Part shown: piece after piece, positions 1 to 19,928 of the stretch
Numbering within the stretch: the stretch's first letter is position 1
Layout: every line of letters begins with the position of its first letter
Source of the DNA: a virus
Lineage: Duplodnaviria; Heunggongvirae; Uroviricota; Caudoviricetes
Direction: 5' to 3' (one strand)
DNA length: 24,208 nt
IMG/VR virus record: IMGVR_UViG_2529292882_000005
Location: 1 to 24,208 of that record
The notes under the pieces: model-generated
Databases searched by the model: none
What the model was told of the DNA's origin: nothing
What the model saw: the letters and a program-made list of their open reading frames with translations, nothing else
Made by a program: the position numbers and the translations under genes

Positions 1-325
1 TACGCTCACAGTATTCTTCCCAGAGTAGCTGCAGCGTCACGCATTTATTACGCAGTTCCCGGTGTACTGTAGCCCAGTCAGGCAGAGAGTGCTTCTTCAT
101 CTTAACCTGGGTCTGAAGGAACGCATGTTTTAGTTTTGTATCATCCCATCCTGTAGGTAAGGGCCACTGCTTTATGCCAAGTTGAGCCGCCCGATTAGCA
201 TATCTGGATACAACGGAAGGGGAGATTGCAAGACTACGACCAATTTGTCGATGGCTGAGTCCAACACCGTATTTAAGCCTAAGAATTTCTTTAAGTTTTC
301 TCATAGAAATTGGAACTGTTGGCAT
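1..325 (-). CDS. istA: IS21-family transposase IstA, N-terminal portion (gene continues beyond the left window edge)
   Basis: Minus-strand translation from ATG at 325 (alternative in-frame ATG at 304) reads MPTVPISMRKLKEILRLKYGVGLSHRQIGRSLAISPSVVSRYANRAAQLGIKQWPLPTGWDD...HRELRNKCVTLQLLWEEYCER with no stop before position 1. The HTH-like N-terminus and the VTLQLLWEEY segment match my memory of IS21-family IstA proteins. Absent from the ORF track because it is open at the window edge. Confidence 0.75.
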   Translation of the reverse strand, partial: MPTVPISMRKLKEILRLKYGVGLSHRQIGRSLAISPSVVSRYANRAAQLGIKQWPLPTGWDDTKLKHAFLQTQVKMKKHSLPDWATVHRELRNKCVTLQLLWEEYCER

Positions 326-390
326 AGGTATCCTTTACCGGAATGGCAAAAGATACAGATCAACACACCTGTGAAGTTCCAATAACATTG

Positions 391-500
391 ATGGAGATCA
401 CTGAATAACAAAATGAGTCAAAAGTGATCTCCATCGATGTTATTCAGCGATCTGTTCAAATGTTATTACCCGATCTCGATGGAAGTTATTGAGTGATCTC
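391..500. repeat. IS terminal sub-repeats (GGAGATCA / TGATCTCC with CTGAATAA / TTATTCAG motifs, about three copies in both orientations)
   Basis: Seen directly: atggagatcactgaataacaa (391-411), agtgatctccatcgatgttattcagcg (about 424-450), cgatctcgatggaagttattgagtgatctcc (about 470-500). Interpreted as transposase-binding repeats of the IS end. Confidence 0.55.
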
Positions 501-640
501 CTTTCATGAAAATACGCAGTGGTCACTTATGCGGATATCAGGGCGAAACAAGCCGAAATTCTGAAAGCTGAGCAGGAATACATTCAGCGGTTGCGGGAAC
601 AGCCAAAAGGCTGGTCAGTGTTTATGAAGACTCACTGGAA

Positions 641-1021
641 TTGCCAGCTTCACAGTGGCGCGATATTAACGGCAAAGAACGTCCGTATGTTTATATTTTG
701 TGGAATGGGCACAATACAAAACCTGAGGATTTGCGAGTAGAGCTTCAGGATGGTGTCGCATTTGATTTGTGGACTGTCGTTGATGATAACCCTCGTCAGT
801 CTGCAAGCGTGAAGGTTGCGGTAAAGATTGTGTTGCTTGATGGCGATAACATAACGATTTCGGTTAATGGTTATCAGGTCAGAACATTTTCGCACGTAGA
901 TTCGCACGCAAAATTTAACGAGGTATGCGAGTTCATCAAAGACAGTATTTTAATGTCGATGAATGATGTGAAATTTGGCAAAGCATCTCTTCCGAAGATA
1001 GAGGGCTGGAGCCGAAAATAG
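641..1021 (+). CDS. hypothetical protein (126 aa as listed), AT-rich, start codon uncertain (TTG at 641, no ATG, no clear SD); possibly a disrupted gene
   Basis: ORF-track entry 641..1021. The frame is open from 572, and the overlapping ORF 519..740 is in another frame, suggesting a frameshifted or IS-truncated gene. Lower GC than neighbouring phage genes (eyeball estimate). Clean intrinsic terminator directly downstream. No family recognised. Confidence 0.4.
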   Translation: MPASQWRDINGKERPYVYILWNGHNTKPEDLRVELQDGVAFDLWTVVDDNPRQSASVKVAVKIVLLDGDNITISVNGYQVRTFSHVDSHAKFNEVCEFIKDSILMSMNDVKFGKASLPKIEGWSRK

Positions 1022-1043
1022 TTCGAAAATCTCTGAATCACCA

Positions 1044-1070
1044 GGCTACGCATTTGCGTGGCCTTTTTTG
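1044..1070 (+). terminator. rho-independent terminator after ORF 641-1021
   Basis: ggctacgc-attt-gcgtggcc hairpin (8 bp with one G-U wobble) followed by tttttt (1064-1069). Confidence 0.7.
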
Positions 1071-1205
1071 TATCCGCGCCACGCCCGGCGCACATCAAAA
1101 ACCACAGAGCCTTTCAGGGGTGAGCTTACGGGATGGTCAGTGTGACTTTCTCTGTGGGCTGGTCACCCCCGGGCGCAGGCTCACCCACTAAAAGGAAAAG
1201 TCACG

Positions 1206-1631
1206 ATGTTTGGTATTTTCAAAAAGAAAACCCGCAAGGCCATTACTGAAGTAAAGAAAATGGAGAACCGCGACGCAGTGGAGGCGACCGTCTGGGGTGC
1301 GTATTCCATCGCATTCGCCGACGGCACCTGTGATGCGAAAGAAATCGCGGTGCTGGAGAAAACCATTGCAGCACTTCCTGCTTTTGCGCCGTTCTCCGGT
1401 GAGATTGCACAAATGAGTGCAAATATCCGCGCCCGTTATGAAGCGTCGCCGCGTTCTGCCAATGCCGAAGCTCTTCGTCAGCTGGCTGATGTTGCCGGTA
1501 CTGATGATGCAGTTAATGTGCTGTGCCTGTGTCTGGATATCGCTGACCAGGATGGCATTGGTCCGGATGAAGAAGCACAGCTCAAGAAAATTGCTCAGGC
1601 GCTGCAGTTGCCGCTGGAGCAGTACCTGTGA
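1206..1631 (+). CDS. TerB-like (tellurite-resistance TerB family) domain protein, 141 aa
   Basis: ATG at 1206 preceded by aaaaggaaaag SD-like sequence. Two copies of the A-x-ADG...E...L...I..AL pattern (SIAFADGTCDAKEIAVLEKTIAAL and LCLDIADQDGIGPDEEAQLKKIAQALQL) typical of TerB domains as I recall them. E. coli-like codon usage. Confidence 0.55.
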   Translation: MFGIFKKKTRKAITEVKKMENRDAVEATVWGAYSIAFADGTCDAKEIAVLEKTIAALPAFAPFSGEIAQMSANIRARYEASPRSANAEALRQLADVAGTDDAVNVLCLCLDIADQDGIGPDEEAQLKKIAQALQLPLEQYL

Positions 1632-1780
1632 AAAGTGCGCGCCTTGTGTTGGCTGCCATCCTGCTGTTTCTGGTGGTGGCGGTGGATTTCACCGGACGGC
1701 TGATGTCGGTGCTGGCAGATGGTGTGCTGGTGGCGATGGCGCTGGTTGTGCTCCGGCCTTTACTGCGCAAATCTGAATAA
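1628..1780 (+). CDS. small hydrophobic protein, 50 aa, two predicted TM segments (V/M-KSARLVLAAILLFLVVAVDFTGRLMSVLADGVLVAMALVVLRPLLRKSE)
   Basis: GTG start overlaps the TerB-like stop codon (GTGA at 1628-1631), suggesting translational coupling. Strong G/C third-position bias (CTG, GTG, GCG codons). Below the 60-aa cut-off of the ORF track. The overlapping listed ORF 1417..1776 is judged spurious. Confidence 0.4.
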   Translation: MKSARLVLAAILLFLVVAVDFTGRLMSVLADGVLVAMALVVLRPLLRKSE

Positions 1781-1828
1781 CATCACACAAAAGGCATCTG
1801 CGGGTGCCTTTGACGGGGTGTTTTTTAC

Positions 1829-1853
1829 GGGCCGCTGGTGGCCCTTTTTTATT
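1829..1853 (+). terminator. intrinsic terminator immediately upstream of the lysis cassette (possibly preceded by a second hairpin at 1791-1826)
   Basis: gggcc-gctggt-ggccc stem-loop followed by tttttt attt. An upstream hairpin aaggc...gcctt is followed by ggggtgtttttt. Confidence 0.55.
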
Positions 1854-1870: not shown

Positions 1871-2263
1871 ATGTCTGAACCCTTATCCGGTTCCGGCACG
1901 GCTGCGGCGCTCGGCGGGGCGACGGTATTCGGGCTGTTTACCGGAACGGATTTCGGGATTGTGTTTGGTGCGTTCGCCGGGGCGTTATTTGTGGCAACAA
2001 TTCCGCAGGCGCTTTCAGCCTGGCGTGTGGCAGCGCATTTTCTGGTGTCGTTCATTATCGGCGTGCTGGGGGCAGAGGTTCTGGCATCCTGGCTGGTAAA
2101 GCACACAGGGTTTGACGGTGCACCTGTCGACGCACTGTGTGCAGTACTGGTGTCAGTGGTGTCGGTGAAGATTCTCTCGTTCATCCACCAGCAGGATATT
2201 GCATCACTGGTGTCCGGCCTGTTCTCCCGCCTGCGGGGTGGAGGAGGCGGCAATGTTAAGTAA
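1871..2263 (+). CDS. putative holin (multi-TM, glycine-rich membrane protein, about 130 aa)
   Basis: ATG at 1871 with aggag SD 8-12 nt upstream. About four hydrophobic segments. First gene of a block ending in an endolysin. Stop overlaps the next start (ATGTTAAGTAA). Confidence 0.55.
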   Translation: MSEPLSGSGTAAALGGATVFGLFTGTDFGIVFGAFAGALFVATIPQALSAWRVAAHFLVSFIIGVLGAEVLASWLVKHTGFDGAPVDALCAVLVSVVSVKILSFIHQQDIASLVSGLFSRLRGGGGGNVK

Positions 2264-2528
2264 CCTTCCCGGATTACTGAATGTGGCGTTATGCACGGTT
2301 ATCGTGCTGACGCTCTTTTTTTATCGTCGTCGTGACTCCAGACACAAACCGCTGATGTCATGGCTGGCCTGGCTGCTGATGCTGCTTTATGCCTTTGCGC
2401 CCCTCAGCTATCTGTGTGGTCGCCCGTTAGCGGCGAACTGGCTGGCGGTGGGGCTTAATCTGCTGTTCTGCGTGCTGGTGATACGTGCACGCGGGAACGT
2501 TTCAAAAATTCTTTCATTCCGGAGGTGA
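2253..2528 (+). CDS. membrane protein, holin/antiholin-like (91 aa)
   Basis: ATG at 2253 preceded by ggaggaggcgg. Hydrophobic segments with basic loops (FFYRRRDSRHK). Sits between the putative holin and the endolysin. Confidence 0.5.
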   Translation: MLSNLPGLLNVALCTVIVLTLFFYRRRDSRHKPLMSWLAWLLMLLYAFAPLSYLCGRPLAANWLAVGLNLLFCVLVIRARGNVSKILSFRR

Positions 2529-2530
2529 GT

Positions 2531-2908
2531 ATGTCGGGTAAATTCAGATTCAGCCGTCGCAGTGAAAAAAATCTGGAGGGCGTTAAACCACAGCTGGTTG
2601 CTGTAGTTCGCCGTGCGCTGGAGCTGACGGAGGTTGATTTCGGTATTACGGAAGGGCTGCGCACGAAAGAACGCCAGAAACAGCTGGTTGCAGAAGGTAA
2701 GAGCCGGACCATGAACAGCCGCCACCTGACCGGTGATGCGGTGGATGTTGTGGCCTACATTGGCAGCCAGGTGTCATGGGACTGGCCTCTGTACGAGAAA
2801 ATCGCGCAGGCATTTAAGCAGGCTGCCGCAGAGCTGGGAACTGCCATCGAATGGGGCGGGGACTGGAAAACACTGAAAGACGGGCCTCACTTTCAGTTGA
2901 AACGCTGA
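2531..2908 (+). CDS. endolysin, peptidase M15 family (L-alanyl-D-glutamate endopeptidase type)
   Basis: ATG at 2531 with ggagg SD (GTG at 2525 is the track start). Zn-ligand pattern SRH...GDAVD...GGDW...DGPHFQ typical of M15 phage endolysins. Confidence 0.85.
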   Translation: MSGKFRFSRRSEKNLEGVKPQLVAVVRRALELTEVDFGITEGLRTKERQKQLVAEGKSRTMNSRHLTGDAVDVVAYIGSQVSWDWPLYEKIAQAFKQAAAELGTAIEWGGDWKTLKDGPHFQLKR

Positions 2909-3587: not shown

Positions 3588-3624
3588 GCAGCCCTTCAGT
3601 GAGGGGCTGCGATAATGCTTGTTG
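3588..3624 (+). terminator. hairpin, possible weak terminator after ORF 3277-3576
   Basis: gcagccc-ttcagtgag-gggctgc (7-bp stem) followed by a moderately T-rich stretch (gataatgcttgttg); no strong U tract. Confidence 0.35.
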
Positions 3625-3631
3625 TAATTAG

Positions 3632-3667
3632 TTAATAAGAAATGAAAATGCGCCCTGACAAGGGCGC
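3632..3667 (-). terminator. rho-independent terminator for minus-strand ORF 3675-3872
   Basis: On the minus strand: GCGCCCT-tgtc-AGGGCGC hairpin followed by auuuucauuucuuauu, beginning 8 nt after the ORF stop. Confidence 0.55.
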
Positions 3668-3674
3668 AAAGGCA

Positions 3675-3872
3675 TTACGGATATGGATCTTCTTTTGCAT
3701 CACCCTGGCCGCTTAAAGCAGTCCATGAGTTTTTCGTATGCTCCTTAACGTTTCTGTTTGGGCAAGGTGGGAGGGATGTATTGGAGGATTTTGTAAAAGT
3801 GTATCCGCAATCATCACAGGAGTACGTCCCAGAAGATGTATCACTTCCATATGGAATGCCTGTTTTTTTCAT
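3675..3872 (-). CDS. small hypothetical protein (65 aa, Ser/Thr-rich, Cys motif CDDC...PPCP), moron-like
   Basis: ATG at 3872 with AGGA 7 nt upstream on the minus strand. Own terminator downstream. Lies in an AT-rich stretch (eyeball) between the lysis genes and cos, the position occupied by bor in lambda. Confidence 0.4.
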   Translation of the reverse strand: MKKTGIPYGSDTSSGTYSCDDCGYTFTKSSNTSLPPCPNRNVKEHTKNSWTALSGQGDAKEDPYP

Positions 3873-3978
3873 AAAAATATCCTGATTAAAACATCACAAC
3901 ATTGTGACCATACGAACATTGTGGTTTTGTGCGCGTATTTCAATATTGCTTTATTGATATGTGTGTGATTTACCTCAC

Positions 3979-4200
3979 GTTTTACGGGTCCTTTCCAGAA
4001 TCTGAAACACCGAGGGTCATAGCACGCGCAAAAACGCGCTATTTATGAAAATTTTTCAGGAAAAAGCATGTCGGTACTTCTCGCGCATAACTATTTGTTT
4101 TTTCTGACATCACATCAGTAAAAGGTCCGACATGAAAACACCCGAAAAAGGGCATTTTAAGCGTTTTCATGTCGGACCCTGTATTTGATAGAGAAATGTA
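3979..4200 (+). other. cos packaging site (cosQ-like, cosN region, cosB with three R-type repeats and an AT-rich IHF-like spacer)
   Basis: ttttacgggtcctttcc (3979-3995) and cgctatttatgaaaattttt (4037-4056) closely match the sequences flanking lambda cosN as I remember them. Three copies of CATGTCGGNNC at 4068-4078 (+), 4124-4134 (inverted) and 4168-4178 (+). Lies directly upstream of the Nu1-like gene. Confidence 0.7.
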
Positions 4201-4202
4201 TT

Positions 4203-4751
4203 GTGAAAGTTAACAAAAAGAAACTTGCTGAAATTTTCAACGTGGATCCGCGAACGATTGAACGCTGGCAGTCTCAGGGGCTATCTTGCGTCTCCGGAGG
4301 TAGCAAGGGTGTTGAATCGGTGTTTGATACCGCGATGGCAATTCAGTGGTACGCGCAGAGAGAAACTGATATCGAAAACGAAAAGCTCCGCAAAGAACTG
4401 GAAGATTTGCGTGCGGCTGCAGAATCAGATTTACAACCCGGCACCATTGACTATGAACGCTACCGGCTCACCAAAGCACAGGCTGACGCACAGGAGCTGA
4501 AAAATGCCCGTGAAGAAGGGCTGGTGCTGGAAACGGAATTGTTTACCTTCATTCTGCAACGTGTGGCACAGGAGATTTCGGGGATACTTGTACGTGTGCC
4601 GCTGACATTACAGCGTAAATATCCGGATATTTCACCGTCACACCTTGATGTGGTGAAAACTGAAATCGCGAAAGCCTCCAATGTTGCAGCTAAAGCCGGT
4701 GAAAACGTGGGCAGGTGGATAGATGATTTCAGACGCACAGAAGGCAGCTAA
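4203..4751 (+). CDS. nu1: terminase small subunit (lambda Nu1-like)
   Basis: Translation [27 protein letters not shown]...[24 protein letters not shown] matches lambda Nu1 closely. GTG at 4203 aligns with the lambda Nu1 start; the track start TTG at 4185 is the alternative. Confidence 0.9.
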
Positions 4752-6639
4752 TGCAGCCGGTGCGATAGCTACAGGGCTTTTATCTCTCAATATTCCGGTT
4801 CCACTGACGACGGTTCAGTGGGCTGATCAACATTATTATCTGCCGAAAGAATCTTCATACACTCCCGGACAATGGGAAACCCTGCCGTTTCAGGTTGCCA
4901 TTATGAACAGCATGGGAAATGACCGGATCCGCACCGTTAATCTGATTAAATCGGCGCGCGTTGGTTACACCAAAATGCTGTTGGGGGTGGAGGCTTATTT
5001 TATTGAGCATAAATCCCGTAACAGTCTGCTTTTTCAGCCAACAGATTCTGCGGCAGAAGATTTCATGAAATCTCATGTTGAGCCAACGATCAGGGATGTC
5101 CCTGCATTGCTGGAGCTGGCTCCATGGTTCGGAAGAAAGCACCGCGATAATACACTCACCCTGAAGCGTTTTTCCTCCGGTGTGGGGTTCTGGTGCCTGG
5201 GCGGTGCCGCAGCTAAAAACTACCGTGAAAAATCTGTGGATGTGGTCTGCTATGACGAACTCTCCTCGTTTGAACCGGATGTGGAAAAAGAAGGCTCGCC
5301 GACGCTGCTTGGCGATAAACGTATCGAAGGCTCGGTATGGCCTAAATCCATACGTGGCTCAACGCCGAAAATTAAAGGCTCCTGTCAGATTGAGAAAGCC
5401 GCGAATGAATCTGCGCATTTCATGCGGTTTTATGTCCCTTGCCCTCATTGCGGGGAGGCCCAGTATCTGAAGTTTGGCGATGATGCGACGCCGTCTGGCC
5501 TGAAATGGGAGAAGGGTAAACCGGAAACGGTGTATTACCTGTGTGAACATAATGGCTGTGTGATCCGGCAGTCGGAACTTGACCAGACCGACGGACGCTG
5601 GATTTGTGACAATACCGGGATGTGGACGCGCGACGGCCTGGCATTTTACAGCGCCGGTGATGAGGAGATACCGCCACCGCGCTCAATCACGTACCACGTG
5701 TGGACAGCGTACAGTCCGTTCACCACCTGGGTGCAGATTGTCTACGACTGGCTGGATGCGCTGAAGGATCCGAACGGCGTCAAGACGTTTATTAACACCA
5801 CGCTCGGGGAGCCCTATGAAGAGGCTGTGGCAGAAAAGCTGAGTTTTGAGTTGTTACTGGAAAAGGTCTGCCACTATGGTGCGCAGGTTCCCCTGCGGGT
5901 GGTTTACCTGACCGCAGGGATCGACTCCCAGAAAGATCGCTATGAAATTTATGTCTGGGGCTGGGCTCCCGGCGAAGAAGCCTTTCTGATTGATAAGCAA
6001 ATTATCATGGGGCGACCGGAAGACGAGGACACCCTTAAACGTGTTGATACGGTGATCCGGAAAAAATATCGTCATGCTGACGGTACTGAAATTTCCATTT
6101 CCCGTGTCTGCTGGGATACCGGTGGTATCGACCAGGACATTGTGTATCAGCGTTCAAGGAAACACGGCACTTTTTTTGTGCTTCCCATAAAAGGGGCATC
6201 GGTGTACGGCAAGCCGGTGATCACCATGCCCAAAAAGCGCAACCAGCGTGGTGTGTTTTTGTGTGAGGTGGGCTCAGATACCGTCAAGGAAATGCTGTAC
6301 GCCCGTTTTGCCCTGCCAGTGGTCTCTGCCAGTGAAGCCGCCCCGTACACCTTCCGTTTTCCGGATAACCCCGACATTTTTTCGGAAGAAGAGGCGCGTC
6401 AGATCGTGGCGGAAGAGCTGGTGGAGAAGGTGGTTAATGGCAGGGTGAAACTGCTGTGGGATAAAAAAGGACGACGCAACGAAGCCCTCGACTGCCTGGT
6501 ATATGCCTATGCTGCCCTGCGTATTTCAGTTCAGCGGTGGCAGCTGGATCTTGAAGCACTGGCCCGTGCCAGAAGAGATGAGCAGGACGACGATGAGATG
6601 AGTCTGGAAGAAATCGCGGCTGCACTGAGTGGAGGATAA
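4723..6639 (+). CDS. A: terminase large subunit (lambda gpA-like)
   Basis: 638 aa. [58 protein letters not shown] and [33 protein letters not shown] are near-identical to lambda gpA segments. Start overlaps the Nu1 3' end as in lambda. Confidence 0.95.
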
Positions 6640-6642
6640 AGA

Positions 6643-6852
6643 ATGGTTTATACGCATGAAATGCTTTGTGATGCCCGTCGGGCATTACATGAACTGATGA
6701 TCGGACGTGCTGTGGTTTCCGTCAGCAAGGACGGGCGTCAGGTTCAGTATTCGCGGGCGACGATTGGTGAACTGCGTCAGTATATTGAAGAGCTGGAAAG
6801 TGCGCTGGGTGTATCCGGACGGCGTCGCGGCCCGGCAGGAGTGGGGCTGTGA
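6643..6852 (+). CDS. W: head-tail joining protein (lambda gpW-like)
   Basis: 69 aa. ARRALHELMIGRAVVSVSKDGRQVQYSRATIGELRQYIEELE...RRRGPAG resembles lambda gpW. ggagga SD upstream. Confidence 0.9.
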   Translation: MVYTHEMLCDARRALHELMIGRAVVSVSKDGRQVQYSRATIGELRQYIEELESALGVSGRRRGPAGVGL

Positions 6853-8420
6853 ACGGGGAACTGGTGGATCTTCACGGGCAGCCACTGCGGCAGAGTATGG
6901 GGTATTCCGGAGGGGGTACCGGATTTGGCGGGCAGCTTGCGGAATGGCTGCCTGCACCGGAAAGTGCCGACGTGGCGCTCTTACCTTCCATTCAGCTGGG
7001 TAACGCCCGTGCGGATGATCTGGTCCGCAATAACGGTATTGCCGCAAACGCCGTTGAAATTCATAAAGACCATATCGTCGGACACATGTTTCGTCTGAGT
7101 TACCGGCCCAACTGGCGCTGGCTGGGGATGTCGGAAGCCGATTCACATGTCTTTATTGAAGATGTTGAGGCAGCGTGGATGGAATTCTGCGATCCGGTGT
7201 TTGGTTCGATGGATGTGGAGGGGCGTCGCTCGTTTACCGAATTTATTCGTGAAGGGGTGGGCGTTCATACATTTAACGGTGAAATTTTTGTCCAGCCCGT
7301 ATGGGATACGGAATCCACGTCATTATTCCGGACGAAATTCAAGACCATCAGCCCGAAACGTGTCAGTACACCCGGTTATGGTACCGGCGATCGTTTTATG
7401 CGTGCCGGGGTGGAAATCAACCGGTACGGAAAAGCACTGGCCTACCATGTTCAGGAAGATGACTGGCCCGGTTACGGTGTCAGCAACTGGACGCGGATTG
7501 CGGCGACGCTGCCCTCCGGGCGACCGGGAATGATCCATGTGTTTCAGCCGCAGGAGGACGGGCAGACGCGCGGGGCCAACCAGTTTTATTCTGTCATGGA
7601 GCGTCTCAAGATGCTCGACACACTGCAGGCCACGCAACTGCAGTCGGCGGTGGTGCGGGCGATGTATGCCGCGACGATTGAATCCACGCTGGATTCGGAA
7701 AAAGCATTTGAATATATCGCCGGGGTGGGAGATGGCGGTAAAAATCCCCTGAACACCATCATGAAAGGCTACGCGCGTTATTACGCCACCAATACGGTAA
7801 AGCTGGGTGGGGTCCGTATTCCGCATCTTTATCCGGGGGATTCACTGAATCTGCAGACAGCGCAGAATGCAGATAATGGTTTCTCTGAACTGGAAAAGGC
7901 GCTGTTACGTTACATCGCTGCCGGACTGGGGGTGTCCTATGAACAGCTTTCCCGTGATTATTCACAGGTCAGTTATTCCAGTGCCAGGGCATCCGCCAAT
8001 GAGTCGTGGCGGTATTTTATGGGCAAACGAAAATTTGTGGCCAGTCGACTGGCATCACAGATGTTTGCCTGCTGGCTGGAGGAAGCCCTTATTCGCGGTG
8101 TGATCCGCCCGCCGAAATCCCGTTTTTCATTCTGGGAGGCCCGTTCCGGATGGTGTCGTGCCGAGTGGATTGGTGCCGGTCGCATGGCGATTGATGGCCT
8201 TAAGGAAGTGCAGGAAGCGGTGATGCGTATTGAAGGTGGTTTAAGCACGTACGAGAAAGAGCTGGCCCTGATGGGCGATGACTATCAGGAGATTTTCCGT
8301 CAGCAACTGCGTGAAAGCCAGGAGCGACAGGCAGCGGGTCTTCCCCGCCCCATCTGGATAAAGGACACGTTTCAGCAGCAGATCCGACAGACAACGGGAG
8401 AAAAAGGCGATGCGTCGTAA
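6849..8420 (+). CDS. B: portal protein (lambda gpB-like)
   Basis: GTG start overlapping the W stop (GTGA). Long conserved runs versus lambda gpB (ADDLVRNNGIAANA, GQTRGANQFYSVMERLKMLDTLQ, LNLQTAQNADNGFSELEKALLRYIAAGLGVSYEQLSR). Confidence 0.95.
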   Translation: MNGELVDLHGQPLRQSMGYSGGGTGFGGQLAEWLPAPESADVALLPSIQLGNARADDLVRNNGIAANAVEIHKDHIVGHMFRLSYRPNWRWLGMSEADSHVFIEDVEAAWMEFCDPVFGSMDVEGRRSFTEFIREGVGVHTFNGEIFVQPVWDTESTSLFRTKFKTISPKRVSTPGYGTGDRFMRAGVEINRYGKALAYHVQEDDWPGYGVSNWTRIAATLPSGRPGMIHVFQPQEDGQTRGANQFYSVMERLKMLDTLQATQLQSAVVRAMYAATIESTLDSEKAFEYIAGVGDGGKNPLNTIMKGYARYYATNTVKLGGVRIPHLYPGDSLNLQTAQNADNGFSELEKALLRYIAAGLGVSYEQLSRDYSQVSYSSARASANESWRYFMGKRKFVASRLASQMFACWLEEALIRGVIRPPKSRFSFWEARSGWCRAEWIGAGRMAIDGLKEVQEAVMRIEGGLSTYEKELALMGDDYQEIFRQQLRESQERQAAGLPRPIWIKDTFQQQIRQTTGEKGDAS

Positions 8421-10026
8421 TTTATCGCATATTGCCGCCATGGCATTTAATGAGCCGCTTTTACTGGAACCCGCCTATGCGCGGGTTTTCTTTTGCGCGC
8501 TGGGTAAAGAGATAGGGGCCGGCAGCCTTGCCGTTCCTCAGCAGGCTGTTCAGCTTGATGCTGATGGTATGCAACTGGCGGTGACTGACTATATGGCGGG
8601 CGGTCAGCGTCCGGCAAAGAGTTACCAGGTGAAGAATGGCATTGCCATTCTGCCGGTGAGCGGCACGCTGGTGCATAAACTGGGTACCCTGCGGCCTTAC
8701 TCCGGCATGACAGGCTATGACGGTCTGACTGCTCGTCTTCAGATGGCGGTGAATGATCCGGATGTGCGCGGCATTTTGCTGGATATCGACAGCCCGGGCG
8801 GTCAGGCTGCCGGGGCGTTTGACTGTGCTGACATGATTTACCGTCTGCGGGAACAGAAGCCCGTGTGGGCGCTGTGTAATGACATGGCCTGTTCAGCCGC
8901 CATGTTGCTGGCGGCAGCCTGTACCCGTCGGCTGGTCACGCAGACGGCAAAAATTGGTTCGATTGGCGTGATGATGGCGCACACCAGTTATGAGAAACAA
9001 CTGGCACAGGAAGGGGTGGACATCACGCTGATTTACTCCGGGCAGCACAAGGTTGACGGCAACAGTATTCAGGCATTGCCGGCAGGTGTGCGTGCAGATT
9101 TTCAGCGCCGTATTGATGAGGCCCGCCGGATGTTTGTCGACAAGGTGGCGCTTTATACGGGGCTGAGTTCAGAGGCAGTGATGAATACCGAGGCTGCCGT
9201 TTATGACGGTCAGGCAGGCATTGATGCAGGCCTGGCTGATCAACTGATTAATGCTGCAGATGCCGTTGAAGTGATGGTTTCTGCACTGAATGACTCTGTT
9301 ACGAAGGAGAATGCAATGACTGTTAAAAATCTCACCGTTGCTGAAGCGGTGGCCCAGGAAAATCAGCGCGTGATGGGGATCCTGAATTGTCAGGAGGCGA
9401 AAGGGCGCGAGCAACTGGCGCAAATGCTGGCAGGTCAACCTGGAATGACGGTTGAGCAGGCGAAAACGTTGCTGGCTGCTGCGCCGGTTGCCGGTACTGA
9501 CAGCACGGGTGATCAGATTATGGCGCTGCCGGAAGCAAAGGGGCGTGAACAACTGGCACAGATGCTGGCAGGTCAACCGGGGATGACGGTGGCGCAGGCG
9601 AAAGCGTTTCTGGCGGCAGCCCCTGCTGCCGGTGCTGCAGGCGCAGGCGATCAGATTATGGCGTTACCGGAAGCAAAAGGGCGTGAACAACTCGCGCAGG
9701 CGCTGGCTGAACAGCCGGGAATGACCGTTGACCAGGCCAAAACGTTACTGGCGGCGGCACCGGTTGCGGGCTCTGCAAGTGTCGGCGATCAGATTATGGC
9801 GCTGCCGGAGGCGAAAGGGCGCGAACAACTTGCACAGGCACTGACAGAACAGCCAGGAATGACGGTGGCGCAGGCGAAAACGCTGCTGGCAGCCGCGCCG
9901 GCGGCATCGCAACCGTCACAGGAAACACTTTTTGATCGCTTTATGGCACAGCATGCTGCCAGTGCGGTTTCCGGTGGCGGAACTGCCGGGCGCGGGGAGG
10001 AAGACCTGCTGATGAGTATGCCGTAA
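8410..10026 (+). CDS. C: prohead protease / scaffold fusion (lambda gpC-like, S49 ClpP-type), 538 aa, with expanded C-terminal repeat region
   Basis: N-terminal two thirds align with lambda gpC (IAAMAFNEPLLLEPAYARVFFCAL, YSGMTGYDGL, VWALCNDMACSAAMLLAAACTRRLVTQTAKIGSIGVMMAH). The C-terminus carries four tandem 46-aa units related to the lambda Nu3 region. Confidence 0.9.
   Translation: MRRNLSHIAAMAFNEPLLLEPAYARVFFCALGKEIGAGSLAVPQQAVQLDADGMQLAVTDYMAGGQRPAKSYQVKNGIAILPVSGTLVHKLGTLRPYSGMTGYDGLTARLQMAVNDPDVRGILLDIDSPGGQAAGAFDCADMIYRLREQKPVWALCNDMACSAAMLLAAACTRRLVTQTAKIGSIGVMMAHTSYEKQLAQEGVDITLIYSGQHKVDGNSIQALPAGVRADFQRRIDEARRMFVDKVALYTGLSSEAVMNTEAAVYDGQAGIDAGLADQLINAADAVEVMVSALNDSVTKENAMTVKNLTVAEAVAQENQRVMGILNCQEAKGREQLAQMLAGQPGMTVEQAKTLLAAAPVAGTDSTGDQIMALPEAKGREQLAQMLAGQPGMTVAQAKAFLAAAPAAGAAGAGDQIMALPEAKGREQLAQALAEQPGMTVDQAKTLLAAAPVAGSASVGDQIMALPEAKGREQLAQALTEQPGMTVAQAKTLLAAAPAASQPSQETLFDRFMAQHAASAVSGGGTAGRGEEDLLMSMP
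9316..10026 (+). CDS. nu3: putative scaffolding protein (lambda Nu3-like) from an in-frame internal start within gene C
   Basis: In-frame ATG at 9316 preceded by AAGGAGA (9304-9310). The product MTVKNLTVAEAVAQENQRVMGILNCQEAKGRE... parallels lambda Nu3, which is nested in-frame in the 3' part of C. Confidence 0.55.
   Translation: MTVKNLTVAEAVAQENQRVMGILNCQEAKGREQLAQMLAGQPGMTVEQAKTLLAAAPVAGTDSTGDQIMALPEAKGREQLAQMLAGQPGMTVAQAKAFLAAAPAAGAAGAGDQIMALPEAKGREQLAQALAEQPGMTVDQAKTLLAAAPVAGSASVGDQIMALPEAKGREQLAQALTEQPGMTVAQAKTLLAAAPAASQPSQETLFDRFMAQHAASAVSGGGTAGRGEEDLLMSMP
9394..9945 (+). repeat. tandem direct repeat, period 138 nt (46 codons), 4 copies (last one partial/divergent), inside the scaffold-coding part of gene C
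   Basis: Unit starts at 9394, 9532, 9670 and 9808. Each encodes EAKGREQLAQ(M/A)LA(G/E)QPGMTV(E/A/D)QAK(T/A)LLAAAP...GDQIMALP. Copies differ by scattered, mostly silent or conservative changes. Confidence 0.85.
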
Positions 10027-10064
10027 GCGATATCCGGAATTCAGATAAATCAGGAGGCTGAAAA

Positions 10065-10400
10065 ATGATTAAAACCACCACGGAAAAGCGCGCGGATGTG
10101 CACATTTTTGCCGGAAACGATCCGGCGCATACCGCAAAAGCCACCAGTGGTATCAGTGCCGCCATGCCTGCACTGACGCCACTGATGCTGGATGACGCCA
10201 CCGGTAAACTGGTGGCATGGGATGGTCAGAAAGCCGGAACGGCAGTGGGCGTGCTGGCTCTGGCGCTTACCGGGACCGAGTCCATGCTGACGTACTACAA
10301 AAGCGGTACATTTGCCACTGAGTCGCTGGTCTGGCCTGATTCTGTGGATGCGGTGAAAAAAGCCAACGCATTTGTGGGAAGTGCCATCAGCCACGCCTGA
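10065..10400 (+). CDS. D: head decoration protein (lambda gpD-like)
   Basis: 111 aa. NDPAHTAKATSGISAAMPALTPLMLDDATGKLVAWDG...YYKSGTF matches lambda gpD. caggagg SD upstream. Confidence 0.9.
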   Translation: MIKTTTEKRADVHIFAGNDPAHTAKATSGISAAMPALTPLMLDDATGKLVAWDGQKAGTAVGVLALALTGTESMLTYYKSGTFATESLVWPDSVDAVKKANAFVGSAISHA

Positions 10401-10420
10401 TGGTGAAGTGATTGACTGAA

Positions 10421-10455
10421 AAAACGGGTCGCGATGCGGCCCGTTTGTGTTTCTG
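10421..10455 (+). terminator. putative intrinsic terminator or attenuating hairpin between D and E
   Basis: aacgggtcgc-gat-gcggcccgtt stem (one G-U wobble) followed by tgtgtttct (interrupted T tract). Confidence 0.45.
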
Positions 10456-10469
10456 AAGGAAAATAAATT

Positions 10470-11498
10470 ATGGGGTTATTTACCACGCGTCAGTTACTCG
10501 GGTACACCGAGCAGAAAGTGAAATTTCGTGCGCTGTTTCTGGAGCTGTTCTTTCGTCGCACGATCACTTTCCATACTCAGGAAGTCATGCTGGATAAAAT
10601 TACCGGCAAAACACCGGTTGCGGCGTATGTGTCTCCGGTGGTGTCAGGCAAAGTGCTGCGCAGCCGTGGTGGTGAAACCCGCGTGTTACGTCCCGGTTAT
10701 GTAAAACCAAAACACCGCTTTGATTATCAGCAGGCAGTGGAACGTCTTCCGGGGGAAGATCCGTCCCGTCTTAATGACCCGGCCTACCGCCGCCTGCGTA
10801 TTCTGACGGACAACCTGAAACAGGAAGAGCAGGCGATTGTGCAGGTGGAAGAAATGCAGGCGGTCAGTGCCGTTCTGCAGGGTAAATACACCATGAGCGG
10901 CGAGCAGTTTGAGACAGTGGAAGTGGATTTTGGGCGTTCTGCCGCCAATAACATTACGCAGGCTGGCGGACGCGAATGGTCAAAGCAGAATGCTGACACC
11001 TTTGATCCGACGCATGATCTGGATGCGTACTGCGATTTTGCTTCCGGCACCATCAATATCGCGATTATGGACGGCACGGTCTGGCGTATGCTGAACGGTT
11101 TTAAACTGTTCCGTGAAAAACTGGATACCCGCCGTGGCTCCAAATCTGAGCTGGAAACGGCACTGAAAGACCTGGGTTCCGTGGTTTCCTTTAAGGGCTG
11201 GTACGGCGATCTGGCTGTCGTGGTGGCGAAGACAACGTATGTTGACGAAAACGGGGATGAACAGCGTTATCTGCCGGAAGGTACACTGATTCTGGGAAAC
11301 ACTCAGGCGGAGGGCGTCCGTTGCTATGGCGCAATCCAGGATAATCAGGCGCTGAGTGAAGGGATCACCTCTGCGATTCGTTATCCGAAACACTGGGAGG
11401 AAGTGGGGGATCCTGGTTGCGAATATACCATGACGCAGTCTGCGCCGTTGATGGTGCTGCCGGATCCGGATGCGTTTGTGGTGGTTCAGGTGAAATAA
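10470..11498 (+). CDS. E: major capsid protein (lambda gpE-like)
   Basis: 342 aa. YVSPVVSGKVLRSRGG, PGYVKPKH, EEMQAVSAVLQGKYTMSGEQFE, LDTRRGSKSELETALKDLG and TMTQSAPLMVLPDPDAFVVVQV match lambda gpE. Confidence 0.95.
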   Translation: MGLFTTRQLLGYTEQKVKFRALFLELFFRRTITFHTQEVMLDKITGKTPVAAYVSPVVSGKVLRSRGGETRVLRPGYVKPKHRFDYQQAVERLPGEDPSRLNDPAYRRLRILTDNLKQEEQAIVQVEEMQAVSAVLQGKYTMSGEQFETVEVDFGRSAANNITQAGGREWSKQNADTFDPTHDLDAYCDFASGTINIAIMDGTVWRMLNGFKLFREKLDTRRGSKSELETALKDLGSVVSFKGWYGDLAVVVAKTTYVDENGDEQRYLPEGTLILGNTQAEGVRCYGAIQDNQALSEGITSAIRYPKHWEEVGDPGCEYTMTQSAPLMVLPDPDAFVVVQVK

Positions 11499-11501
11499 GA
11501 C

Positions 11502-11530
11502 GGGGCGGGATATACCCGCCTTTTTCTTTA
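11502..11530 (+). terminator. rho-independent terminator after the major capsid gene
   Basis: ggcggg-atata-cccgcc hairpin followed by tttttcttta. Confidence 0.7.
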
Positions 11531-11548
11531 TCGCACGGGAGAGATGTG

Positions 11549-11914
11549 ATGACAAAAGAGCAGATGACGGAACGCCTTCAGGCGCTGGCAGTGATTCTGG
11601 GGCGTGAAGCAGATATTTCAGGTTCAAAAGCCGATCTTGAGCAGCGTCTGGCGGAATGGGAGGAGGAGGCCGCTGGATTCGATGGGGAGGAGACGGGGAA
11701 GGAAGAGGTGGGCAACGATGCATCCGGCGACGGAATGCATTCTGAGCAGGGACTCGCCCGGGTGCGTATGCTGAAAACGGCGCATATGCCAGCCTGTGAT
11801 GCTGTGACGGGAAAAATGTTGATGTTTGCCCGGGCCTTCAGTGTTGTGCTGGTTAATGAAGCCACAGTTCCCGCGTTGCTGGCAGACGGTCTGGCAGAAA
11901 AAATCCGGGAGTGA
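11549..11914 (+). CDS. FI: DNA packaging protein (lambda gpFI-like)
   Basis: ATG at 11549 with gggagag SD. MTKEQMTERLQAL...SKADLEQRLAEWEEE parallels the lambda FI N-terminus (MTKDELIARLRSL...TKEELALRVAELKEE). The track ORF 11417..11914 has an unsupported upstream start. Confidence 0.8.
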   Translation: MTKEQMTERLQALAVILGREADISGSKADLEQRLAEWEEEAAGFDGEETGKEEVGNDASGDGMHSEQGLARVRMLKTAHMPACDAVTGKMLMFARAFSVVLVNEATVPALLADGLAEKIRE

Positions 11915-12318
11915 TGATGTTCAATAATCTGTTCGATCAGGCCATGAGTGATGCGGATGACATCATCCTGGATACGATGGGGACGGAAATCAGCATATAT
12001 CCGGGCGGCACGGAAAGAAAAATCCGTGCCGTTTTTGATGCCCCGGCAGATAACACCGGGATTAACACTGGCAGCGGCGAAATTCGTGATACTGCGCCCG
12101 TGTTATTTACCCGGAGCGCATGGGCCGCCGGTCTGAAAAAATATGACAGGGTCATGATCCACGGCGAACCCTATCAGGTAGTCGATCCCGGCTGGGATGA
12201 GTCAGGCACTGCGGGTCAGGGGGTGATTACCATCACCCTTGCGCGTGGAGAGCCGGGGAGAAATACACCTGCTGCCCCTGTCCGACCGAGTAAACGTTAT
12301 GGCAGTCAGAGAGCATGA
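11914..12318 (+). CDS. FII: head-tail connector / head completion protein (lambda gpFII-like)
   Basis: ATG at 11914 overlapping the FI stop (TGATG). FNNLFDQAMSDADDIILDTMGTEISI...RAVFDAP...GSGEIRDTAPVLFTRS parallels lambda FII. Confidence 0.85.
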   Translation: MMFNNLFDQAMSDADDIILDTMGTEISIYPGGTERKIRAVFDAPADNTGINTGSGEIRDTAPVLFTRSAWAAGLKKYDRVMIHGEPYQVVDPGWDESGTAGQGVITITLARGEPGRNTPAAPVRPSKRYGSQRA

Positions 12319-13021
12319 ACGAAGCAGTGCCCGGCAGCGACGGCTGGCACGAAACCTCGTCGTCGATATTGATGAAGATGAGGTGCTGAAAATTATCGCT
12401 AAACTGGGTGGGTCAAAAAGTCAGATCCGTAAAGCCTGGGGCGTGGCGCTGAAAAGAGCCGCGTCTGCACTGCGGATGAAGGCTATGGTAGAGTTTAAAA
12501 AACAGGTTGCCCCACGCAGTCAGAAAATGATCAAAAAGCGTGTTCTGCATAATTTTATCATTCGTCGTAACGGTGATGAGTTTGATGAGGCGAAGGTATG
12601 GTTCGGTCTGAACGCCATCAAAGTACGCGATCTGCGCGGACGCATCAGTGGGGGACGATGCGGCGAACGCCATCAGTTGCGCGATGAGCGGGGGCGTTTT
12701 GCACCAGCTTCTCACCGCAGGAAGGCACGGGAGATCCGTTTTAAACCTGCCGGGGAATCCCTGCCTGTCAGCACCTGGTCAACGGATGATGCCTTTATCA
12801 ACCAGTTCGAAGCGGAAAATCGTAACGGACGTATATCAAAAAGGAAAACGATACTGATCCGACAGACATCCGGACGACGGAGGGTGCGTGAAGCGGAAAT
12901 TGATATTTATGAAGCCATGCTGAACCGTATAGAGGATTTTGTTTTTCCGGATGCGGAAGTACTGATCCTGAAAAATTTTGAGCATGAACTGAAATTCCGG
13001 GTATTTAAGGGGCTGGAGTGA
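12299..13021 (+). CDS. hypothetical basic protein (about 240 aa), putative tail completion protein at the head-tail module junction (tentatively lambda gpZ-like)
   Basis: Uninterrupted frame. ATG at 12299 overlaps the FII 3' end. Arg/Lys-rich. Occupies the position of Z in lambda gene order (FII-Z-U). Family assignment is tentative (composition and position only); the start codon is uncertain. Confidence 0.5.
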   Translation: MAVREHERSSARQRRLARNLVVDIDEDEVLKIIAKLGGSKSQIRKAWGVALKRAASALRMKAMVEFKKQVAPRSQKMIKKRVLHNFIIRRNGDEFDEAKVWFGLNAIKVRDLRGRISGGRCGERHQLRDERGRFAPASHRRKAREIRFKPAGESLPVSTWSTDDAFINQFEAENRNGRISKRKTILIRQTSGRRRVREAEIDIYEAMLNRIEDFVFPDAEVLILKNFEHELKFRVFKGLE

Positions 13022-13584
13022 TGGAGCCATTGATGATGGGCGCCTGGCATCAGGCGGTGATTGACAGTCTGAAACAAATTCCCTGGGTGGAAGATGCCGA
13101 TGAGTACCCGGAAAAAGTGACGCAACTGGTGACGCCTGCTGTGTTTGTGGATGTACCGGGCTGGGACAAGGCTCATTTTGCCGACGGGCAAACGCGGGTC
13201 ACGCTGAAATGTGATCTGTTTGTGGTGACAGACCGGGCCGGGAAGACGGAAAACGTGCCAAAACCGCAGATTTTTGCCCGTTGTCTCGCGATGGATTTAT
13301 CTGACTGGATTGAGGGAGCCACGTTCGGGCTGGATAACGTTGATCCGGCGGTTTTTATCGATGCTGAGGTGGATACCTTCGACCGGCTGCTGGACGACTA
13401 CATCGTTTTCCGTGTCTCTTTTGAACAGGACATTCCGGTCGGCGAAGATCCGTTTGCGGTTCCGGCAGGTGCGCCGTTACAGGAAGTCTGGCTGGGTAAA
13501 GTACCGGAAACCGGCAAGAGACATGAGCAGGATTATCGTCTTATCTGGAAATCGGAGGGCACCGGTGATGAGTCTGGCGGATGA
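13021..13584 (+). CDS. hypothetical protein (about 187 aa), putative tail terminator / tail completion protein
   Basis: ATG at 13021 overlapping the upstream stop (TGATG); the track start is GTG at 13018. Acidic protein lying between the lambda-type head-completion genes and baseplate gene V. Function inferred from position only. Confidence 0.5.
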   Translation: MEPLMMGAWHQAVIDSLKQIPWVEDADEYPEKVTQLVTPAVFVDVPGWDKAHFADGQTRVTLKCDLFVVTDRAGKTENVPKPQIFARCLAMDLSDWIEGATFGLDNVDPAVFIDAEVDTFDRLLDDYIVFRVSFEQDIPVGEDPFAVPAGAPLQEVWLGKVPETGKRHEQDYRLIWKSEGTGDESGG

Positions 13585-14191
13585 AGTGGCAGAGTTACGC
13601 CGCAGGGTGGCGGACATGGTCCGTCGCGGCGTGGTGGACGAGGTGATCCCGGGTAGCCCGGTGATGGTTCGGGTGGATATCGGGGATGTGCTTTCGCCTC
13701 CGTTGCCCTGGATTCAGGTACAGTCCGGGCGCTACATGCAGGTCAGTAATTATCCGTCCCCCGGAGATGCCGTTACAGTGATATCGGAGGCGGGCGATCT
13801 GCGTAACGGTCGGGTGTATCCGGGGCCCAATATTGACGCCATTCCTGTCCCTGAGGGCAGTGAATACGAACATGTTATTTTGTTTGATACCGGAACGGAA
13901 ATCCGTTACGACCGTCAGGCTAATGTCCTGTCCATCACGCTGGCTGAAGGCGGCAGCTATAAAATTACAGGCAGGGGAACCCTGGACGGTCCGGTAGAAA
14001 TCACAGATACCCTGACCGTACAGGGTAAAGCAACCATGAATGCTGAGGCGGTGGTTAAGGCGGATCTGATGGTCGGTGGTGAGGTTTCTGATTATCACGG
14101 AACGATGAGTCAAATCAGAATTGTCTATAACGGTCACAATCACCGGGGCGACAGTGGTGGCAGCACCGGACAGCCTGGTCAGCAAATGTAA
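13568..14191 (+). CDS. baseplate assembly / spike protein (P2 gpV-like)
   Basis: ATG at 13568 (MSLADEVAELRRRVADMVRRG...). The C-terminal HNHRGDSGGSTGQP resembles the P2 gpV C-terminus (HKHPGDSGGTTGSP). The track ORF 13274..14191 has a spurious upstream extension. Confidence 0.85.
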   Translation: MSLADEVAELRRRVADMVRRGVVDEVIPGSPVMVRVDIGDVLSPPLPWIQVQSGRYMQVSNYPSPGDAVTVISEAGDLRNGRVYPGPNIDAIPVPEGSEYEHVILFDTGTEIRYDRQANVLSITLAEGGSYKITGRGTLDGPVEITDTLTVQGKATMNAEAVVKADLMVGGEVSDYHGTMSQIRIVYNGHNHRGDSGGSTGQPGQQM

Positions 14192-14224
14192 TCCCCTTTC
14201 AGTTCTTTTTCCGGAATAAACAAC

Positions 14225-14581
14225 ATGATTGGTATTGATTCAGCCACCGGCAGATATCTGCACGGTAACGAACATCTGCGCCAGTCCGTCACTGATATTT
14301 TGTCAACACCGGTCGGCAGCCGGGTCCTGCTCAGGGAATACGGCAGCAGACTTTTCAGTCTGCTTGATAACCCACAGGATGATTTCACGCGGGTGAGAAT
14401 TGTCCGTGAAACGGTAACCGCCCTTGAACGCTGGGAACCCCGTCTGACTCTCCGGCGGGTGGAAGTGACGTGGACAGGAGAAGGAAGTGCGTGGCTGACG
14501 CTTGTCGGGGTGAATAACGAAACTCAGGACACGATTCGACTCGAGGAGATAAAAATTGGCAACGTCTCAGGCAATTATTGA
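14225..14581 (+). CDS. baseplate protein (P2 gpW / gp25-like)
   Basis: 118 aa. ILSTPVGSRVLLREYGSRLFSLLDNPQD...ALERWEPRLTLRRVEV matches the GPW/gp25 family. Confidence 0.85.
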   Translation: MIGIDSATGRYLHGNEHLRQSVTDILSTPVGSRVLLREYGSRLFSLLDNPQDDFTRVRIVRETVTALERWEPRLTLRRVEVTWTGEGSAWLTLVGVNNETQDTIRLEEIKIGNVSGNY

Positions 14582-15470
14582 TCTGTCCGCGATACCAGTA
14601 CCGGATGCGGTGGAGGTGCCGGACACCGCTGTGCTGGTCACTCAGATAGTGGCGAAGTATCAGGAGCTGGATACGTTGTTTTCGGCTCTGGTGGAATCTG
14701 ATCCCGCGTATAAATGGGCAGAGGCGCTGGCTTATCGGGTGGCGCTGATGCGCCAGCAGATAAATGATGCTGTCCGTGCTGTACTGCTTGCCAGTGCCGG
14801 TGGGAACGATCTGGATCAGGTTGGCGCGAATTATCAGGTTCAGCGGCTGGTTATTACCCCGGCAGACGACAGCACCATTCCGCCCACGCCGGCGGTGTAT
14901 GAAGATGATGACGCTTTTCGCGAACGTATCCAGTTGTCATGGGCACGGCTCAGCACCGCCGGCGCGAAAAATGCGTATCACTATTTTGCACAAAGTGCTG
15001 ATCCTGATGTGCTGGATGTGAAGGCTTACGGACCGGAAACACATTCGCAGGAAGGCCGGGTTTTTCTTTATGTGTTATCCCGCTCCGGAAATGGCACTGC
15101 ATCACAACCCCTGCTGGATAAGGTGGCAGCATCAGTCTGTGATGATGAAACCCGTCCCCTGACGGATTTTGTCAGTGTCCGGACGGCAGAAATTATTCCC
15201 TACGATGTGGTGGCGGATATTCATATTCCCTACGGACTGGATGGTGAACTGGTTATGGCAAATGCCCGCAAGGCGCTGCAGTCATACACTGACAGCGTCC
15301 ACCGGATTGGCTCGGTGGCATCCCGTTCTGGCATGGATGGTGCCCTTCACCAGACCGGGGTGATTACGGTGAATCTGACCTCTCCGGGCAGTGATATCGT
15401 TCCTGCGATGGGGCAGGCACCGTGGTGCCGTAAGATAACGCTGAATAAGGTGGAGACAACTGATGAATGA
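14556..15470 (+). CDS. baseplate protein (P2 gpJ-like)
   Basis: AIIDLSAIPVPDAVEV..., AVRAVLLASAGGNDLDQVGANYQVQRLVITPADDSTIPPTPAV closely match P2 gpJ. Non-ATG start (TTG at 14556) overlapping the gpW-like 3' end; exact start uncertain. Confidence 0.85.
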   Translation: MATSQAIIDLSAIPVPDAVEVPDTAVLVTQIVAKYQELDTLFSALVESDPAYKWAEALAYRVALMRQQINDAVRAVLLASAGGNDLDQVGANYQVQRLVITPADDSTIPPTPAVYEDDDAFRERIQLSWARLSTAGAKNAYHYFAQSADPDVLDVKAYGPETHSQEGRVFLYVLSRSGNGTASQPLLDKVAASVCDDETRPLTDFVSVRTAEIIPYDVVADIHIPYGLDGELVMANARKALQSYTDSVHRIGSVASRSGMDGALHQTGVITVNLTSPGSDIVPAMGQAPWCRKITLNKVETTDE

Positions 15471-16053
15471 CGATATCAGGAGCATACTGCCGGTCAGTGC
15501 CAGTCTGGCAGAGCGGGTGGTGGACTGTGTCGCCGGAGATATGCTGTCAGACATAGCGGTCTGCCTGATCCGCTATGTGAAAAATCCCGATTTATGTCCT
15601 GCTGAATTGCTGCCATGGCTGGCCTGGGAAATGGCGGTGGATACCTGGAATGAACACTGGACGGAGACGGAAAAAAGGTCTGCGATAAAACGTGCTGCTT
15701 ACATCCACCGCCACAGAGGGACTAAAGCGGCGCTGATGGCATCGCTGGCTGACAGTCCCTTCCGATCGCAGATTGTTGAGTGGTATGAGCAGACCCCACC
15801 CGGGGAGCCGTATACCTTCCGTCTGAACGTGGAGCAGAAGGATTTACCGGTGCTGATGAATGATCATCAGGATCTGAAGCATGCGGTGCTCCGTGCCAAA
15901 AATCTGCGCAGCTGGTTCAGTATTCACGTTTACGGGAACAGCACAGGGCGTGGATTTGGTTACGGCTATGTGATGGCGACAGAAAAAATCAGAAGTACCG
16001 GTGTGACAACAAAGACAGTGCCCACAGGCGGGCAGAGTGAGGCAGGTGTATGA
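15463..16053 (+). CDS. baseplate / tail fibre attachment protein (P2 gpI-like)
   Basis: 196 aa. ATG overlaps the J stop. LPWLAWEMAVDTWNEHWTETEKRSAIKRAAYIHRHRGTKAAL is typical of P2 gpI. Confidence 0.85.
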   Translation: MNDDIRSILPVSASLAERVVDCVAGDMLSDIAVCLIRYVKNPDLCPAELLPWLAWEMAVDTWNEHWTETEKRSAIKRAAYIHRHRGTKAALMASLADSPFRSQIVEWYEQTPPGEPYTFRLNVEQKDLPVLMNDHQDLKHAVLRAKNLRSWFSIHVYGNSTGRGFGYGYVMATEKIRSTGVTTKTVPTGGQSEAGV

Positions 16054-17279: not shown

Positions 17280-17281
17280 CA

Positions 17282-17824: not shown

Positions 17825-17842
17825 AAAAGAAGTTAATCATCT

Positions 17843-17867
17843 GACCGCCTGAGGGCGGTTTTTTTAT
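17843..17867 (+). terminator. rho-independent terminator between the fibre-assembly and sheath genes
   Basis: accgcc-tgag-ggcggt hairpin followed by ttttttt, 12 nt before the sheath ATG. Confidence 0.8.
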
Positions 17868-17878
17868 GGGAGAAATGT

Positions 17879-19869: not shown

Positions 19870-19888
19870 TCCGGGGATCCTGTCATTC

Positions 19889-19917: not shown

Positions 19918-19928
19918 AGGAGATGCTT

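Follow-up and report, generated by a model that had tools for sequence, protein, structure and literature searches.

A copy of the IS21-family element ISEc12 at the upstream edge of a prophage late region, adjoining an accessory ORF that is frameshifted with or without the element

The visible end of ISEc12 and its exact terminus

The window analysed here, a stretch of 24,208 nucleotides, opens within an insertion sequence (IS) and continues through an accessory ORF into the lysis and virion genes of a prophage (Table 1). Window positions 1-518 are the left end of ISEc12, an already catalogued element, and agree with 0 mismatches with the final 518 bp of the ISEc12 copy in strain ATCC 11775, which measures 2,581 bp, so that 20% of the element is visible. 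A nucleotide search with positions 1-506 found 1,991 matching E. coli records (≥99% in 1,950), and the matching records carry the label 'IS21-like element ISEc12 family transposase'. Among 5,426 complete E. coli genomes, 1,558 carried the same segment, at a median of 3 and a maximum of 14 places in each carrier, and 710 plasmids matched as well. The preliminary description of this DNA had proposed an IS21-family element at this position, and both the 518/518 identity and the match to the IS21 transposase profile NF033546 bear this out.

As was also proposed, the window opens inside istA on the minus strand. Translation from 325-323 begins MPTVPISMRKLKEILRLKYGVGLSHRQIGRSLAISP… and proceeds through 108 codons without a stop. 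This IstA fragment matched NCBIfam NF033546 with E=1.2e-11, which is below the cutoff only through its being a fragment, since the full-length IstA of the ATCC 11775 copy reached 310.5 bits against a cutoff of 160. Weak Pfam matches to helix-turn-helix (HTH) domains were obtained for the fragment as well. The IstB of the ATCC 11775 copy scored 270 bits for NF038214, above the cutoff, and istB was annotated after istA in 6/6 full reference ISEc12 copies inspected. The remaining ∼2,063 bp (the rest of istA, the 248-codon istB and the right terminal inverted repeat, TIR) are expected to the left of the window, which holds only the right junction.

Table 1. Features of the window, of the IS-free contig L005 and of the full ISEc12 copies used as reference (TSD, target-site duplication)
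Feature	Location	Strand	Basis or TSD
Partial ISEc12 (IS21 family), istA-proximal left end	1..518	-	identity, TSD-flanked copies, empty site in L005
istA codons 1-108 of 513, N-terminal helix-turn-helix region; ATG at 325-323, runs off the window start	1..325	-	stop-free translation, NF033546
Left terminal region, 193 bp from tip to istA start	326..518	-	repeat search, tip comparison
Predicted target duplication GTGGT, right copy	519..523	+	TSD length in reference copies, empty site in L005
Phage accessory pseudogene (PHROG 5091, function unknown)	519..1021	+	alignment, ORFs, PHROG match, tblastn
Intrinsic-terminator-like hairpin, 9-bp stem with 6 GC pairs, TTTTTTGT tail	1043..1064	+ (late-transcript strand)	hairpin scan
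TerB-like gene	1206-1631	+	Pfam and 52F4 match
DUF3927 gene	1628-1780	+	Pfam and 52F4 match
Holin, Phage_holin_8	1871-2263	+	Pfam and 52F4 match
Holin, Phage_holin_3_7	2253-2528	+	Pfam and 52F4 match
M15 endolysin	2531-2908	+	Pfam and 52F4 match
Terminator-like hairpin	L005 298-317	late strand	hairpin scan
Terminator-like hairpin	L005 345-362	late strand	hairpin scan
Promoter-like site	L005 364-391		promoter scan
ISEc12 copy, ATCC 11775 (L001)	phosphoethanolamine-transferase gene		TSD ACTGC, L001 1933-1937 / 4519-4523
ISEc12 copy, 52F4	prophage		TSD TTTATT (6 bp)
ISEc12 copy, strain 4/1-1	lom gene		TSD AAAGT
ISEc12 copy, AR_0086	DUF932 gene		TSD GGAAC
ISEc12 copy, FDAARGOS_536	autotransporter gene		TSD ACACC
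ISEc12 copy, JCKP02	prophage		TSD ATGAG

The IS had been thought to end around 500-506. Its tip is in fact base 518 (…CATGAAAATACGCA), 12 bp past 506, because the six TSD-flanked copies, the ends of IS-only BLAST matches (at window 518/519) and the empty site in contig L005 all agree on this position. Within the left terminal region, repeats of the GATCTCC/ATCGATG type were found at 381-410, 423-444, 461-491 and 492-508, and the last of these, AGTGATCTCCTTTCATG, is the outermost internal repeat rather than the tip of the element. On the minus strand the window tip reads TGCGTATT (518-511); the tip …AATACGCA at 518 matches the TGCGTATT at the opposite end of the reference copies, which gives the element TG…CA inverted ends. 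The copy that interrupts the phosphoethanolamine-transferase gene of ATCC 11775 runs from TGCGTATTACCG… to …CATGAAAATACGCA, and all six full copies share this length and these tips, with a TSD of 5 bp in 5/6 and of 6 bp in 1/6.

In all these respects the visible part is ordinary. It does not differ from the ISEc12 copies of RefSeq E. coli genomes and plasmids in its 518 nucleotides, IstA N-terminus, tip (…AATACGCA) or internal terminal repeats, and the insertion site is its sole novelty. Members of the IS21 family encode IstA and IstB and have multi-repeat TIRs with a terminal CA, 5-bp repeats and a split promoter (PMC10122671). With the prototypes IS21 and IS5376 (PMC10122671), ISEc12 has in common an istA (HTH and DDE) followed by an istB (AAA+) in the reference copies, CA-ending TIRs with several internal repeats, 5-bp target duplications, and promoter-like hexamers divided between the TIRs (-10-like on the left, -35-like on the right), the ISEc12 promoter halves being recognised by eye; at the sequence level it is distinct from both.

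An ISEc12 insertion with a 5-bp duplication has been described in tssM of the ST131 strain EC958 (PMC10711316). That insertion in E. coli ST131 clade C involved the same element and was a simple one, but it split a functional gene and abolished the system (PMC10711316), whereas the copy in the window adjoins an accessory ORF that was already frameshifted. The duplicated ACTGC is common to the ATCC 11775 copy and the unrelated EC958 tssM insertion (PMC10711316), which may be due to chance or to a weak target preference; the remaining four 5-bp duplications have other sequences.

The empty site and the neighbouring pseudogene

The insertion point was found without the IS in L005, a 1,748-bp Logan contig (SRR25724314) that is present in 8 samples and was retrieved via the 73-aa product of 519-740. 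L005 429-1748 matched window 519-1838 with 0/1,320 mismatches, and the contig departs from the window exactly left of 519. Its first 428 nucleotides are phage leader without the IS, in which a tRNA-Gly gene has its 3' end and which also holds terminator-like hairpins, a Shine-Dalgarno-like motif (SD) and a promoter-like site. Across the insertion point (marked by a slash) L005 reads …CATAAGAGGATTGATACA/GTGGTCACTTATG, with AAGAGG-N7-GTG spanning it, and the empty site itself reads …AAGAGGATTGATACA/GTGGTCAC. The IS was thus inserted between GATACA and GTGGT, and its tip abuts the GTG at 519. L005 represents the same prophage allele with an unoccupied site, and the IS sits inside the prophage, since L005 continues upstream into phage DNA. 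This agrees with the earlier placement of the IS, which put it within the prophage and at the upstream border of the lysis and late genes; each circumstance that would have spoken against the earlier reading (stops in the visible part of the istA-like frame, no IS21 similarity, an IS outside phage DNA) was found to be absent. Scanning the window and L005 for tRNAs and Rfam families returned nothing.

BLAST did not find the junction of IS tip and phage DNA in any of 5,426 complete E. coli genomes or in phage records, and exact matches to it were also lacking in GTDB species genomes and JGI metagenomes. The insertion is recent and strain-specific, as the IS end equals the consensus copy, the junction was not found elsewhere and an identical IS-free allele exists. 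Ordinary IstA/IstB transposition would have placed ISEc12 in the late-operon leader with istAB antisense to the late genes. Such an insertion would be simple, with a full-length IS and GTGGT duplicated on its far side, given the matching TSDs of the 6/6 sampled copies. It predicts a left flank of …TTGATACAGTGGT followed by the right end of ISEc12, that is, a left junction reading …AAGAGGATTGATACAGTGGT/TGCGTATTACCGTGAAGG….

Alternatively, the IS could mark a rearrangement boundary, where a deletion or inversion by recombination between ISEc12 copies, or an adjacent deletion, removed the early and Q region and orphaned the late region. The view ends at base 1, and a single junction fits an adjacent deletion equally well; moreover, the several places per ISEc12-positive genome (median 3, up to 14) provide recombination substrates. 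Nonetheless, the sampled ISEc12 copies were all simple insertions with matching TSDs (6/6), the late region is without decay and positive evidence for a rearrangement was not found. We therefore consider a rearrangement boundary unlikely.

The ORF behind the junction had been listed as a single frame at 519-1021 and as a possible casualty of the IS. In the window it consists of two overlapping frames, 519-740 and 641-1021 (also seen as two frames by tblastn), which result from a 1-nt deletion of one T between 598 and 599: the window reads GCGGGA-ACAGCC where three relatives have GCGGGATACAGCC. The same deletion is present in the IS-free L005 (at 508/509). It is a circulating allele rather than a sequencing error of the window, because it occurs in a contig found in 8 samples and lies outside a homopolymer run. 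The gene is intact in relatives, where it encodes 167 aa when read from the GTG, while annotations start at upstream in-frame ATGs and give 180-187 aa (three relatives) or 194 aa (STEC383). The GTG after AAGAGG-N7 is the likelier start, because the match to the PHROG 5091 profile (E=1.4e-49) begins at this codon; if an upstream ATG were used, the IS would split the gene after codon 13. Whichever start is used, the IS separates the ORF from its SD (AAGAGG) and from the promoter-like site. Consequently, the idea of a casualty holds in so far as the IS abuts the start and cuts off these signals, but not as the cause of the defect: the gene is dead independently of the IS, since the IS-free L005 has the same frameshift, and most simply the frameshift preceded the arrival of the IS. 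The IS would thus silence only an already dead gene. No Pfam or NCBIfam match was obtained for the PHROG 5091 ORF. With its own promoter-like site and terminator-like hairpins on both sides, the gene has a moron-like layout.

The late region and its relatives

The genes downstream of the pseudogene form a lysis module (Table 1), which also contains a small lipoprotein-like ORF. Behind the lysis genes follow those for a Nu1/gpA terminase, W, a lambda-type portal, an S49 protease, D, E and FI, and then those of a P2-type contractile tail (V, W/gp25, J, I, fibre, sheath, tube, tape measure, U, X and D). All lysis, packaging, head and tail genes are on the plus strand. The virion module at window 4185-23764 is therefore a mosaic of lambda-type packaging and head genes with a P2-type contractile tail. 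In the gap between lysis and terminase genes (3600-4180) we also observed a 65-aa minus-strand ORF at 3675-3872, opposite in direction to the late genes, that has CxxC…CP motifs and no Pfam match.

The best relative is the prophage of 52F4 (98% coverage, 95.8% identity), and 30/30 of the 52F4 late proteins compared were full-length, with a single HSP each in the window. The late region within the window is intact, with no sign of decay, which runs counter to the suggestion that the IS had left the prophage cryptic or defective. Most divergent from this relative are the fibre and fibre-assembly genes (16050-17824), at 72-78% amino acid identity.

It had further been suggested that the IS lies among Q, pR' and qut. 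In 52F4 and STEC383, which have the same flank, a DUF1133/Q-type gene ends ∼2.3-2.5 kb upstream of the insertion point, and in other relatives the distance is up to ∼4.3 kb. The interval between Q and the insertion point in 52F4 and STEC383 holds a DNA methylase gene, tRNA-Thr/Gly and a 65-aa ORF that is accompanied by a terminator-like hairpin; in relatives with this flank, two terminator-like hairpins were counted between Q and the insertion point. More generally, all ∼24 module relatives except L011, for which none was called, have a Q-type gene 0.3-4.3 kb ahead of the TerB-like gene. Because the relatives place Q kilobases upstream of the insertion point, the IS most probably lies in the leader of the late operon, a cargo-rich stretch, and outside Q, pR' and qut.

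The cargo between Q and the lysis module varies among relatives and includes a methylase, tRNAs, a Ser/Thr kinase with a PP2C phosphatase, a porin and a PemK toxin. The module of TerB-like, DUF3927 and two holin genes is paired with at least four Q-type families, namely PF06323, PF06530, PF06576 and PF03589 (L006-L015, L022-L031), and the same lysis module is joined to several different head and tail modules. In the related prophage of the pigeon E. coli isolate 'numer 3', the holins are separated from the M15 endolysin by genes with the annotations enterotoxin A family and heat-labile enterotoxin IIA B chain (L002 8178-9323), a toxin cargo within the lysis cassette; nothing of the kind is inserted in the window.

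Two further ISEc12 insertions, found by means of chimeric queries, are located in the interval between Q and the holin genes, one in 52F4 (L003 7340-9920), 22 bp before the holin ATG and with TSD TTTATT, and one in JCKP02 (L021 4551-7131), with TSD ATGAG. Together with the copy at window 1-518 these make three independent, strain-specific insertions, all with istAB antisense to the late genes; at n=3 a shared orientation has p=0.25. By contrast, ISEc12 was present in 0/20 unselected relatives, whose loci were collected with TerB-like protein and holin queries. A hot spot is unsupported, given that each insertion is strain-specific, the sites differ, none of the 20 relatives carries the element and the orientation bias has p=0.25. 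That ISEc12 prefers the Q-to-holin leader in one orientation, and that its insertions are kept through attenuated lysis or packaging, therefore seems very improbable; were it true, such preference and retention would be a route to prophage domestication.

Late transcription, promoters and packaging

An IS in this position might act as a polar block that uncouples the lysis and morphogenesis genes from Q and pR', so that neither lysis nor particles result. In the window allele, 2,581 bp of untranslated antisense sequence would be interposed between the presumed pR' and the lysis genes, and four weak terminator-like hairpins were found on the antisense strand of the IS. The ISEc12 copies in the 52F4 and JCKP02 prophages, in the same interval and orientation, could likewise reflect selection against lysis. 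However, four such matches are no excess over the 2.2 expected by chance, and in the IS-free allele the late strand of the leader itself has three or more terminator-like hairpins, which are stronger than those of the IS. Late expression would thus already have to use a terminator-resistant polymerase, because the native leader holds these hairpins. Q-modified RNA polymerase resists Rho-dependent as well as intrinsic terminators, and in lambda the polar effect of an inserted IS is relieved by antitermination. A Q-modified polymerase that passes the leader hairpins should also read through the IS. In addition, the other late genes compared were all intact, which does not fit long-term decay, and ISEc12 was absent from the 20 unselected module relatives. 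We infer that the IS does not abolish late expression, since the Q-modified polymerase already passes at least three leader hairpins, and we regard a polar block as improbable; the earlier proposal that the IS separates or inactivates late regulation is correspondingly weakened, as a block would not be expected in a leader with terminator-like hairpins of its own.

The situation resembles that of polar IS insertions in lambda operons that are relieved by N or Q, in that the IS is located within an antiterminated unit upstream of late genes. In the lambda operons the relief by read-through is classical, whereas here it is predicted, the prophage's own Q being outside the window.

Outward hybrid promoters formed by the IS end had also been proposed, and these could drive expression of the TerB-like and holin genes independently of Q. 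In IS21 the left TIR carries a -10 and the right TIR a -35 sequence, and a strong promoter is formed only in tandem copies (PMC10122671). The ISEc12 tips fit this arrangement by eye: a -10-like TATTTT (514-509, minus strand) is located 4 nt from the left tip and directed inward, toward istA, and in the reference copies TTCACG faces outward 10 nt from the right tip. IS21 ends do carry promoter halves (PMC10122671), but it is the left TIR, with its inward -10, that is turned toward the phage genes; the outward -35 belongs to the opposite end and is directed away from the lysis genes. A promoter scan detected no promoter-like site on the plus strand in 1-1300 or across the junction. Even for an inward hybrid promoter, the phage flank, read by eye, agrees with a correctly spaced -35 at only 2/6 positions. 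On the basis of the scan and the reading by eye, a hybrid promoter at the visible junction was rejected, and Q-independent expression from such a promoter is extremely unlikely; the IS end would donate no promoter to the lysis genes. Speculatively, and given the predicted left flank, the outward -35 at the unseen end would face a TATCAA at 17 nt, which would make at best a weak antisense promoter.

If the IS is indeed full-length, both the late transcript and the phage genome would be longer by 2.6 kb. Lambda tolerates only ∼5% excess DNA. As the prophage has a cos-type terminase like that of lambda (Nu1/gpA), the 2.6 kb contributed by the IS could exceed the capsid capacity of a cos-packaging phage and so impair the prophage, although not via transcription.

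Taken together, these data make it quite probable that the window contains an ordinary ISEc12 insertion in the late-operon leader of a prophage with lambdoid regulation, in front of a dead ORF and with late expression retained. The IS is real, ordinary and already known, and it probably does little harm to the prophage. For annotation, the analysis provides the exact IS boundary (518) and identifies the adjacent ORF as a pseudogene whose defect has nothing to do with the IS, which matters little beyond this genome. The IS alone is no ground for calling the prophage defective. As a substrate for rearrangement and a possible 2.6-kb load on cos packaging, ISEc12 is nevertheless relevant to tests of the inducibility of this prophage.
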